A stretch of DNA of 64,000 bases, taken from NCBI GenBank assembly GCA_038255395.1, contig JBBSLI010000009.1, positions 26,556 to 90,555 of the forward strand, in the 5' to 3' direction. This DNA is from Solirubrobacterales bacterium. GTDB taxonomy: Bacteria > Actinomycetota > Thermoleophilia > Solirubrobacterales > Solirubrobacteraceae. Shown here in pieces: positions 44,284 to 46,941 of the stretch (position 1 is the stretch's first letter; every line of letters starts with the position of its first letter). Made by a program: the position numbers and the translations under genes. Below the pieces are notes generated by a model that had not been told where the DNA came from, made no database searches, and saw nothing but the letters and a program-made list of their open reading frames with translations.

Positions 44284-46941
44284 TCAGGCCGGCGCGCGAG
44301 CGGGGACGCGCACGAGCTTGCGGATCTGCGCGGAGTCGAGCGTCTCGGACTCCAGCAGCGCATCCGTCAGCCGGTCCAGCGCGTCGCTTGAGCCGCGCAG
44401 GATCGCGTCGGCACGCGCCTGCGCCTCCTCGACGAGCCTCCGCGCCGCAGCGTCGATCGCGTGCGCCGTCTCGTCGGAGGGGGCGATGCCGTCACCGTTG
44501 TGTCCGTAGCCCAGCGGACCGACCTCGTTGCTCATCCCCAGCTCGCGGACCATGTAGTGCGCGGTCTCGGCGACGCGCCGCAGATCGCTCGACACGCTCG
44601 TACCCGAGTCGCCGAAGACCAGGTGCTCCGCGGCGCGCCCGCCGAGCAGGACGGCCATGTCGTCGATCAGCCCTGCGCGCGAGCGCGACAGGCGGTCGTG
44701 GCTGTCGGTGATCCAGGCGCGCCCGAGCGTCCGTCCCGACGGGATGATGCTGACCATGTGCGGCAGGTTGCCGTCGGGCATCGCGAGCGCGACGATCACG
44801 TGCCCGGCCTCGTGGACGGCGATGACCCGCCGCTCCTCGTCGGTCATGACGTGCGCGCGCCCGATCCCCATCGTCGTGCGCTCGACGGCCTGATTGAGGC
44901 TCGTCATCGTGATCTCCGTCTCGCCGCGGCGCGCGCCGAGCAGCGCCGCCTCGTTCATGATGCTCGCCAGGTCGGCGCCCGACAGGCCGCGCGTCATGCC
45001 GGCGAGTGCGTCGAGGTCGACGCCGGTGGCCAGCCGCTTGCTGCCGACGTGCACCTGCAGGATCTCGCGCCGGCCCGTGTGGTCGGGCAGGTCGACGGTG
45101 ATCTCGCGGTCGAAGCGGCCCGACCGCGTCAGCGCGGAGTCGAGGATGTCGGGCCGGTTCGTGGCCGCCATGATGATGATCCCCTCGCGCTGGCGGAACC
45201 CGTCGAGCTCGATGAGGATCTGGTTGAGCGTCTGCTCGCGCTCGCGGTGGCCGTCGGATGCCGCGCCGCGCTTGGCGCCGATCGCATCGATCTCGTCGAT
45301 GAACACGATCGCCGGCGCCATCGCGCGCGCCTGGCTGAAGAGATCGCGCACGCGGGCCGCGCCCTCGCCGACGAACGTCTCGGTGAACTCCGTCGCCGCG
45401 ACGGCGAGGAACGCCGCGTTGGACTCGCCGGCGACGGCGCGCGCGAGCAGCGTCTTGCCGCAGCCGGGCGGCCCGGAGATCAGGAAGCCGCGCGGGAAGC
45501 GCGCGCCCAGCGCTGTGAAGCGGCTTGGGTCGCGCAGGTAGTCGGTGATCTCCTGCAACTCGTCGCGCGCCTCGCCGATGCCCGCGACGTCGGCGAACGT
45601 CACGCGCTCGCCACCGAGCGACTGCTGGCCGATCGAGCGGTCGCGCATCGACAGGCGGCGCTGGCGCTCGGGTGCCTCGAGGATGCGGGTGAGCGCCTCG
45701 TCGAGCTCGCGCTGGCCGATCTCCTTGTTGCGGGCGCGGGCCGTCAGCAGCGCGGCCTCGTTCATGACGTTCTCGAGGTCGGCGCCCGTGAACCCGATCG
45801 CGCGCCGCGCGACGTCGGCGACGTCCGTGTCGGCGGCGAGCGGCTTGCCGCGCGCATGGAGGGCGAGGATGGCCGCGCGGCCGGCCTCGTCGGGACGGTC
45901 GACGGAGACGGTGCGGTCGAAGCGGCCGGGGCGCAGCAGCGCCGCGTCGAGATCGTCGGGGCGGTTCGTCGCGCCGACGACGATCGTCCCCGAGCCGCGC
46001 TCGAAGCCGTCCATCTCCGTCAGCAGCTGGTTGAGCGCCTGGGACTGCTCCTCGCCCGACGAGGCCGGGCCCGAGCGCCGCTTGCGCGCGACGGCGTCGA
46101 TCTCGTCGATGAACACGATCGCAGGCGCGTTCTCGCGCGCTTCCTTGAAGAGCTCGCGCACCCGCGCCGCTCCGACGCCGACGTACATCTCGACGAAGTC
46201 CGAGCCCGAGATCGAGTAGAAGGCGGCGCCCGATTCGCCCGCGACGGCCTGCGCGAGCAGGGTCTTGCCGCAGCCCGGCGGGCCGTACAGCAGCACGCCC
46301 TTGGGGACCCGCGCGCCGACCTCCGCGAAGCGCTCGGGATCGGCGAGGAAGTCGGAGATCTCGCGCAACTCGGTGAGCGCCGCGTCCTGGCCGGCGACGT
46401 CGTCGAAGCCGCGCGCCATCATGTCCTTGGTCGCCTTGCGCGCGCCGCTCTTCTGCGCGAACAGCCCGGTCCCCGCCTGCCGCATGGCGATGAAGTAGAC
46501 GAGCAGCGTGATGAGGATCAGCGACGGCAGCAGGAACGACAGGTAGGGCAGGATGCCCTTGACGATCTGCTGGTCGATCCGCAGCTCGACCTCGTTGTTC
46601 TGGAGGACCTCGACGAGGATGTCGCGGCTGGACATCGAGCGCAGGAACGGCGTGTAGAACTCCACGCGGGCGCCGCCCGGGCGGCGGTACGTGCCCTGCA
46701 CGACGGAGTCGACGTCGAGGATCGTCGCCCGCTGGATGCGCCCGGTCTCCGCGAGCTCGACCATGCGCGAGAAGTCCAGCCGGCTGCCGACGGGATGCGG
46801 CTGGGTGGCGACGATCACCTGCACGTAGCCGATCAGGAGCACGGCCACGATCAGCGTCGCCCAGAAGCCGGGTGTGTTCAGACGTCGCTTGAAGTCCGGC
46901 GGCCGACGCCGTCCAGAATGCCGATCAGTTCGCCGGGTCAC
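44284..46941 (-). CDS. FtsH-like membrane metalloprotease with duplicated (tandem) AAA+ modules and one M41 peptidase domain
   Basis: 885 aa. It has a TM, an FtsH_ext-like segment and a second TM. AAA-1 has GPPGCGKT (46261-46284), IVFIDEIDA and [20 protein letters not shown]. AAA-2 has GPPGCGKT (45451-45474), IVFIDEIDA and [20 protein letters not shown]. HEAGH lies at 44800-44814, followed by [11 protein letters not shown]. Confidence 0.85.
   Translation of the reverse strand: [885 protein letters not shown]

Follow-up and report, generated by a model that had tools for sequence, protein, structure and literature searches.

A membrane-anchored FtsH-family protease with two tandem AAA+ modules from a Solirubrobacterales bacterium, a member of a widespread and apparently undescribed family

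Results

Gene and domain architecture

The DNA analysed here (the window) comprises 64,000 nucleotides (nt) of contig JBBSLI010000009.1 (positions 26,556-90,555, forward strand) from a Solirubrobacterales bacterium. On its minus strand lies an open reading frame (ORF) for an FtsH-family protease of 885 amino acids (aa) that carries two tandem AAA+ modules in front of a single M41 peptidase domain (Table 1). The guanine-cytosine (GC) content of the ORF is 0.71/0.49/0.95 by codon position in a window of 72% GC, the pattern to be expected of a real gene. The start codon is uncertain by up to ~31 codons, because P0002, which is 99% identical, is called at 854 aa. A second ftsH-like gene is not found within the window, and promoter/terminator, Rfam, and tRNA scans around the gene give nothing informative.

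From the N-terminus, the protein comprises a transmembrane (TM) helix, an FtsH_ext-like domain, a second TM helix, AAA-1 with its lid, a linker, AAA-2 with its lid, and one M41 domain. This order had been proposed in an earlier reading of the same sequence (the original prediction), and both Pfam and hydropathy bear it out. In accordance with the two AAA matches expected at that time, Pfam reports AAA (PF00004) in two stretches (E=6.7e-90), AAA_lid_3 in two stretches, and Peptidase_M41 (PF01434) once (E=8.1e-45). FtsH_ext (PF06480) scores 21.8 bits, below its cutoff of 25.5, whereas the ortholog P0084 passes at 26.9. The two TM helices enclose a small extracytoplasmic domain and thus form an anchor of the FtsH type.

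The NCBIfam model of the FtsH family (TIGR01241, FtsH_fam) matches in two stretches with 1009.8 bits against a cutoff of 600, placing the protein within the family. In contrast, the E. coli-type equivalog (NF008004) stays at 723 bits against a cutoff of 1008, and CDC48 (TIGR01243) at 465.5 bits against 802.65, so that the protein falls outside the CDC48 subfamily. Matches to IteA_antiphage (206 bits, cutoff 510) and to proteasome-ATPase models reflect generic AAA similarity rather than membership. Canonical FtsH has one AAA module; the two PF00004 and two AAA_lid_3 stretches therefore make the protein an architectural variant of the FtsH family, not a canonical member.

Table 1 Features of the FtsH-family gene and of its surroundings in the window (pLDDT, predicted local distance difference test)
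Feature	Residues (aa)	Position in window (nt)	Strand	Basis or remark
Whole gene, 2xAAA FtsH-family protease		44284..46941	-	885 aa, GTG start
TM1, with Arg-rich cytoplasmic tail before it	26-46	46804..46866	-	Hydropathy; model helix 24-46
Extracytoplasmic FtsH_ext-like alpha/beta domain	47-125	46567..46803	-	PF06480 sub-threshold; model pLDDT 82-88
TM2	130-154	46480..46554	-	Hydropathy; model helix 126-156
AAA-1, large domain and lid	178-423	45673..46410	-	Pfam, motifs
Inter-module linker [23 protein letters not shown]	424-446	45604..45672	-	Family alignment; disordered in monomer model
AAA-2, large domain and lid	447-692	44866..45603	-	Pfam, motifs
Peptidase_M41 domain, H710-E711-x-x-H714	698-876	44314..44850	-	Pfam, motif
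GlgE maltosyltransferase and three alpha-amylase-family genes (one CBM_48)		13030-14994 and 53685-59618
Further amylase-family gene		29939-31015
CWB2/BNR protein	1059 aa in length	33547-36726	+
RCC1-like beta-propeller protein		36809..38842	+	Conserved neighbour; profile match, relatives' loci
VapC (PIN)		43347-43760	-	Directly downstream of the FtsH gene, with VapB
VapB		43736-44029	-	Toxin-antitoxin pair with VapC
Membrane serine protease 1		47076-48275	+	Multi-TM N-terminus and Trypsin_2, MarP-like
Membrane serine protease 2		48272-49426	+	Multi-TM N-terminus and Trypsin_2, MarP-like
BNR_2 beta-propeller protein		49423..51033	-	Conserved neighbour; profile match, relatives' loci
SBP_bac_5 solute-binding protein		51875..53623	+	Conserved neighbour; profile match, relatives' loci

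Two complete and conserved AAA+ modules

AAA-1 contains the Walker A motif GPPGCGKT (aa 220-227, nt 46261-46284) with K226, the pore loop MYVG (aa 252-255) with Y253, the Walker B motif IVFIDEIDA (aa 275-283) with D279/E280, the MDGF signal, and a second region of homology (SRH, aa 324-343) with sensor-1 N326 and the Arg fingers R337/R340. AAA-2 contains GPPGCGKT (aa 490-497, nt 45451-45474) with K496, the pore loop TFVG (aa 522-525) with F523, IVFIDEIDA (aa 545-553) with D549/E550, LDGF, and an SRH (aa 593-612) with N595 and R606/R609. The linker string [15 protein letters not shown] occupies aa 420-434, and the restart VTFADVAG... occupies aa 447-465. The M41 domain carries HEAGH (aa 710-714, nt 44800-44814) and GGRAAE (aa 767-772). 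The motif coordinates quoted in the original prediction all prove exact when rechecked against the ORF.

Residues K226, D279/E280, N326, R337/R340, K496, D549/E550, R606/R609, and H710/E711/H714 are invariant in 60 orthologs, as are E772 and D786, the candidates for the third zinc ligand of M41. Within their class, module 1 sequences average 80% identity and module 2 sequences 83%. As judged from these alignments, AAA-1 and AAA-2 are under purifying selection and equally conserved among orthologs, and both keep the residues that are predicted to be required to bind and hydrolyse ATP, to signal between subunits, and to grip the substrate.

AAA-1 and AAA-2 share 56% protein identity over 242 aa (E=4e-89) and 71.7% DNA identity over 703 nt, so the two modules are complete and diverged, with intact catalytic motifs, as had been predicted. 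Divergence to this extent indicates that the duplication is old and excludes an assembly stutter, and more than 60 orthologs from independent assemblies show the same architecture; the earlier argument against a stutter therefore stands. An artefact or a pseudogene could take the form of a stutter, of a gene fusion through a lost stop codon, or of a decaying duplicate. These possibilities are refuted by the DNA divergence, the uninterrupted frame, and the strong codon-position GC bias. In addition, ~190 two-module proteins share an identical architecture although they come from independent assemblies, some with contigs on the Mb scale, and all catalytic residues are invariant in the 60 orthologs. 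With nothing found in its favour, we regard an artefactual origin as practically out of the question.

In our judgement, the gene is probably a functional member of an undescribed FtsH branch in which the whole AAA+ cassette has been tandemly duplicated within the gene, and which works as a stacked two-ring hexamer.

A family with one to four AAA+ modules

To place the window protein, we consider the best 120 matches listed from a search of 5.8 billion proteins with it as query; homology listings of this kind favour multi-AAA proteins, because every extra module adds score. Among the 120, 64 are two-module proteins (848-903 aa, two Walker A motifs and one HExGH) and 53 are three-module proteins (1113-1252 aa, three Walker A motifs and one HExGH), and P0001 (1438 aa) and P0003 (1493 aa) have four modules. 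Over all searches, at least 188 two-module, at least 61 three-module, and at least 4 four-module proteins were gathered, each with one HExxH. By Pfam, P0001 has four AAA domains, four lids, and one M41 domain. Precomputed domain strings read AAA-lid x2 + M41 for P0084 and AAA-lid x3 + M41 for P0008 (gene at 10001-13531 of L082), and both proteins are encoded on Mb-scale contigs. The modules inside four-module proteins are 50-77% identical to one another, indicating that the four-module proteins are real too.

The orthologs with the architecture of the window protein are 66-99% identical to it. Source names across the family are Solirubrobacteraceae, Solirubrobacterales, Thermoleophilia, Thermoleophilaceae, Gaiellaceae, Acidimicrobiales/Acidimicrobiia, Actinomycetota, Chloroflexota, and Candidatus Dormibacterota, and the closest named relatives among the matches listed belong to Solirubrobacteraceae (68-75% identity). 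The N-terminal domains are 30-62% identical among family members, as against 21-27% to canonical FtsH. The HExxH site is kept in 242 of the 243 multi-AAA proteins checked, the only exception being P0381 (HTVGH).

The window protein thus belongs to a widespread, apparently undescribed family with one to four AAA+ modules, which is abundant in poorly studied soil Actinomycetota (Thermoleophilia, Acidimicrobiia). In public records, its multi-AAA members are annotated only as FtsH or "AAA family ATPase", labels that hide the multi-module architecture. The search for the taxonomic spread of 2xAAA-M41 proteins envisaged in the original prediction does return many such proteins, but the prediction itself had missed the large family under generic names, its three- and four-module forms, and the single-module relatives that share the N-terminal domain.

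Origin of the modules and of the linker

The first modules of two-, three-, and four-module proteins are 65-69% identical to each other (mean), and the last modules 63-70%. By mean identity, the middle modules form a third group that is nearer to the first modules. In a neighbour-joining tree, the first modules are monophyletic in 125 of 200 bootstrap replicates (63%), and the last modules cluster together beside canonical FtsH; the lone "canonical" sequence inside the last-module cluster is probably L003, a contig-truncated two-module fragment. These comparisons show that first and last modules are, at the level of sequence, positionally orthologous across the two-, three-, and four-module forms and across classes.

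No module has lost Walker A, Walker B, the DGF inter-subunit signal, the sensor-1 Asn, or either Arg finger. First modules are marked by E[ML]YVGVG and MDGF, both as in canonical FtsH, and by RPGRFD; last modules are marked by EV[FY]VGEG, LDGF, and R[AS]GRFD. In the window protein, the AAA-1 pore loop EMYVGVG resembles that of canonical FtsH, and the AAA-2 pore loop ETFVGEG is diverged. The middle-module pore loops of three-module proteins are variable, sometimes with no aromatic residue.

These signatures bear on the main rival to two working rings, namely a largely passive ring 1. In this alternative, the hexamers are stacked and only the M41-proximal AAA-2 translocates, while AAA-1 binds or slowly hydrolyses ATP and serves as a scaffold, spacer, gate, or selection ring, like D1 of p97 or D2 of NSF. 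The fixed and different signatures of first and last modules suggest non-equivalent roles, and the variable middle-module pore loops point in the same direction, as does the loss of Walker B from the first module in some other, divergent lineages (P0167, P0135, and P0188). There is also precedent in ClpAP, in which D2 is the main unfoldase and D1 adds little grip (PMC11570520). However, in essentially all 65 two-module members AAA-1 keeps Walker A/B, sensor-1, the Arg fingers, DGF, and an aromatic pore loop; it is conserved like AAA-2; and the pore loop nearest to canonical FtsH is that of AAA-1, not that of AAA-2. We consider a passive first ring unlikely, though it deserves to be taken seriously, and favour two working rings.

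The linker is nearly invariant in two-, three-, and four-module proteins, with the consensus R[IL]L.APERQRRL[SA][ML]R.[RK]S[IV]G[RQ][RQ]...[ED][RK]VTFADVAG. It consists of the canonical post-lid segment (GPEKK.R..S) joined to the canonical pre-AAA segment (GKSKAK...VTFxDVAG), and this hybrid nature defines the duplicated unit. As read from the linker, the duplicated cassette runs from the pre-AAA linker through the large domain and its lid, and takes in the first ~15 residues of what is normally the passage to the peptidase. The single-module relative P0156 (619 aa, GPPGCGKT) is 49% identical to the N-terminal domain and AAA-1 of the window protein and, independently, 48% identical to its AAA-2 and M41. 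Therefore, the window protein looks like a single-module protein with an internal cassette duplication. Together with the module comparisons and the tree, this alignment traces the two modules to a duplication within FtsH rather than to a Cdc48 ancestor.

GPPGCGKT is found in most family modules, including those of single-module relatives, where canonical FtsH has GPPGTGKT; in about half of the two-module proteins, the last module has V or T in place of the Cys. The Cys serves well as a marker of the family, and its position could be sensitive to redox state.

To look beyond the family, we used the junction segment (lid-1, linker, and start of AAA-2) as query against 1.84 billion cluster representatives. 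The best 150 matches include further proteins with two, three, or four AAA modules and M41 that lack the family linker, and in several of these the modules are closer to each other than to the window modules or to canonical FtsH. P0134 is the clearest case: each of its two modules shares 70-72% identity with the lone module found in its nearest relatives, but only 46-51% with the window modules; the nearest relatives among the matches listed all have one module and ~550 aa, and one is named Gammaproteobacteria. This pattern indicates that the multi-AAA M41 architecture arose more than once. Besides P0134, multi-AAA M41 proteins outside the family of the window protein include P0130, P0270, P0157, P0382, and others. 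P0133 (1428 aa) resembles a head-to-tail fusion of two complete FtsH proteins.

Stacked rings as the likeliest assembly

Yeast Cdc48 D1-D2 aligns collinearly with the window protein in a PDB sequence search (query 173-669 to Cdc48 207-708), and TIGR01243 matches residues 172-679 as a single stretch. We built two AlphaFold2 monomer models, one of the full-length protein and one of the cytoplasmic part. The domains are modelled confidently, and inter-domain confidence is low (predicted template modelling score, pTM, 0.37-0.40). The inter-module linker is disordered in the model over 21 residues; the D1-D2 linker of p97 has 22 residues (PMC4730245). For both models, the best fold matches are p97/Cdc48 D1-D2 protomers over ~560 columns, with template modelling scores to p97 D1-D2 protomers of 0.49 for the full-length model and 0.56-0.59 for the cytoplasmic model, at a root-mean-square deviation (rmsd) of 8-10 Å and the pTM given above.

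The Cdc48 collinearity, the linker length, the p97/Cdc48 fold matches, and the existence of four-module members favour stacking. Four modules do not fit into a closed in-plane ring of six, whereas a stack can have any number of modules. The likeliest assembly, then, is a hexamer with two stacked AAA+ rings that feed one protease chamber. As FtsH subunits do, six chains would come together through their M41 ring and membrane anchor, and AAA-1 and AAA-2 would form two coaxial hexameric rings between membrane and protease, like D1 and D2 of p97/Cdc48 and ClpA. Ring 1, with the pore loop EMYVGVG, would catch a substrate segment at the membrane-facing mouth and pass it to ring 2, with the diverged pore loop ETFVGEG, which would thread it into the M41 chamber, where it would be cut. 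Coupling between the rings is probably the task of the conserved Arg-rich linker, a part that the D1-D2 linker plays in p97. The extra ring would most likely add grip, processivity, or pulling force, and would shift the protease about one ring-height farther from the membrane.

An alternative is an in-plane concatenated ring, in which both modules lie side by side in a six-module ring. The enzyme would then be a trimer and the three-module form a dimer, on the pattern of dynein-like rings or of ClpX rings with artificially linked subunits. A linker of ~20 residues could in principle bridge neighbouring subunits, an idea that rests on single-chain ClpX constructs, and module counts of 2 and 3 both divide 6. 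However, P0001 and P0003, with four modules and the same linker, cannot tile a six-module ring. Moreover, a trimer would have just three M41 domains and as many membrane anchors, whereas the solved FtsH structures, the PDB matches among them, are all built around a six-fold M41 ring. Stacked rings are also favoured by the module spacing, which is collinear with that of Cdc48 D1-D2, and by the model, whose best structural matches are stacked D1-D2 protomers. We consider an in-plane arrangement highly improbable.

The stacked type II double ring of the original prediction is thus the most plausible reading, but it stays at the level of inference, and three points weigh against it. First, with the low pTM and high rmsd of the models, the ring-on-ring geometry is a proposal. 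Second, conserved motifs would attest selection rather than substrate translocation by both rings; D1 of p97 and D2 of NSF keep their motifs yet play mainly structural or regulatory roles. Third, the protein may be either the sole FtsH or a specialised paralog. On the functional side, the two rings of ClpAP divide labour (PMC11570520), with further precedent in PMC8666677, and the unfolding strength of FtsH is a debated limitation (PMC9601784). By analogy with ClpAP, such an enzyme would gain grip or force from an extra ring.

Genomic neighbourhood and paralogs

In the window, the tandem Trypsin_2 genes, whose CvpA/Colicin_V-like multi-TM products resemble mycobacterial MarP, are divergent from the FtsH gene (Table 1). 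One or two Trypsin_2 genes lie within 7 kb upstream of the two-module FtsH gene in four of five related loci, and are directly adjacent in three; the Trypsin_2 neighbour is shared by L081, L083, L087, and L088, with a Colicin_V/CvpA N-terminus in L088. More broadly, a set consisting of RCC1-like, CvpA/Trypsin_2, 2xAAA FtsH, SBP_bac_5, and BNR_2 genes recurs around orthologs on five other contigs, often joined by ParA/CbiA and subtilase genes, and in the relatives the SBP_bac_5 gene is immediately downstream of the FtsH gene. A functional link of the FtsH protein with the tandem Trypsin_2 proteases may be inferred. The cluster of membrane serine proteases and surface-protein-like genes hints at a dedicated envelope proteostasis module.

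VapBC is absent from the position downstream of FtsH in L081, L083, L086, L087, and L088, and is therefore probably a local insertion in the window. None of tilS, hpt, and folE is present at the window locus or at the related loci examined.

The arrangement of ftsH-like genes bears on whether the window protein acts in a mixed complex, that is, in hetero-oligomers with paralogs of other module number or with a dead protease site, in parallel to mitochondrial m-AAA, cyanobacterial FtsH2/3, and plant FtsHi complexes. In relatives of the Acidimicrobiia type, paralogs sit together. L084 carries a three-module copy (5560-9240) and a two-module copy (10001-12787), 760 bp apart on the same strand, beside an SBP_bac_5 gene. 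L085 carries a single-module copy (4876-6810) and the two-module copy P0381 (10001-12730), ~3 kb apart; P0381 has HTVGH instead of HEAGH and has thus lost the catalytic Glu. P0342, a two-module copy with an intact site, is apparently on this contig too, as its longest contig has the identical length of 26,144 bp. The arrangement in L085 is reminiscent of FtsHi and, by that analogy, suggests that mixed complexes may form there. For the window protein, however, there is one ftsH-like gene in the 64 kb, and the Solirubrobacterales-type loci L081, L083, L086, L087, and L088 each have a single copy within +/-10 kb. In addition, chains of different module number could not align their rings in one stack. 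We therefore hold a mixed complex to be quite improbable and retain the two-ring hexamer described above. P0002 and P0094, whose longest contigs both measure 18,406 bp, were considered as two paralogs on one contig, which was not confirmed, as L083 shows one ftsH-like gene.

The rest of the window is ordinary chromosome, with GlgE and other alpha-glucan enzymes, RF3, LuxR regulators, and a subtilase. GlgE and the amylase-family genes form an alpha-glucan/trehalose-type metabolism cluster flanking the region. A tRNA-Ala(GGC) of 91 nt called by ARAGORN (36239-36329, minus strand) is probably spurious; it lies inside the CWB2/BNR gene, where Rfam has no tRNA.

Discussion

We rate the 2xAAA FtsH as real, conserved, widespread, and uncharacterised. 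A PDB sequence search found no chain that combines two AAA modules with M41, and an enzyme of this kind is undescribed in the full-text literature searched, which lies mostly outside subscription journals; the original prediction, which knew of no characterised example, agrees with this. Nor is a 2xAAA-M41 enzyme mentioned in the passages of a 2022 FtsH-evolution review and of an actinobacterial tandem-AAA paper reached by text look-up.

In reviews and textbooks, FtsH and Lon are single-ring motors fused to a peptidase, and double rings belong to separate unfoldases (ClpA, ClpC, Cdc48, and ClpB). The single-ring view is stated explicitly for the E. coli AAA+ proteases in a 2024 paper (PMC11570520). 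There is, in our estimate, an even chance that the two-, three-, and four-ring FtsH proteins are a natural series of multi-tier unfoldase-proteases. They would then be the first AAA+ proteases to unite a peptidase and a motor of type II or higher in a single polypeptide, and no other group of close relatives would be known to differ in the number of stacked rings. If so, pulling force, grip length, or the distance between protease and membrane could be set in evolution through ring number, and the series would be a direct natural experiment on the contribution of an additional AAA+ ring. The same anchor and peptidase with one to four motor rings offer a clean comparative system, in which the effect of an extra ring on force, processivity, grip on slippery sequences, and substrate selection can be tested by comparison. 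The part of a conserved linker in coupling the rings can be studied in the family as well.

The window protein resembles canonical FtsH, Yme1, and AFG3L2 in its TM-extracytoplasmic-TM anchor and in its classic-clade AAA+ with FtsH-type pore loop, DGF, and SRH. As in canonical FtsH, a C-terminal M41 domain with HExxH is in the same chain, and identity is ~48-51% over AAA-2 and M41. It differs from canonical FtsH in having two AAA+ modules (one to four in the family) rather than one, in its Walker A motif (GPPGCGKT rather than GPPGTGKT), in its distant N-terminal domain, and in lying outside the tilS-hpt-ftsH-folE type of context.

The plastid proteins Ycf2/Orf2971 and FtsHi are likewise FtsH derivatives of altered architecture. 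Chlamydomonas Orf2971, annotated with two AAA+ ATPase domains (PMC9421593), is the nearest item in the literature, an FtsH derivative that has two AAA+ domains and has lost M41. FtsHi has lost protease activity, and so has, by its HTVGH site, the family relative P0381. In Ycf2/Orf2971 and FtsHi, M41 or its active site is lost and the role is in protein import, whereas the window protein keeps HEAGH; a pseudo-protease identity of the FtsHi/Ycf2 type is therefore rejected.

With the type II AAA+ unfoldases Cdc48/p97/VAT and the actinobacterial Cpa, the window protein shares two tandem classic-clade AAA modules and a linker of ~21-22 residues; with Cdc48/p97, it further shares the collinear alignment and the best structural matches of the model. 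It differs from Cdc48/p97 in being membrane-anchored and without an adaptor N-domain, and its peptidase is covalently attached, whereas that of Cdc48 is a separate 20S partner. ClpA and ClpC are of other AAA+ clades, are soluble, and work with a separate serine-protease heptamer, with no homology beyond the AAA+ fold. The likeness to ClpAP and ClpCP would lie in the proposed principle, two stacked AAA+ rings that feed a self-compartmentalised peptidase.

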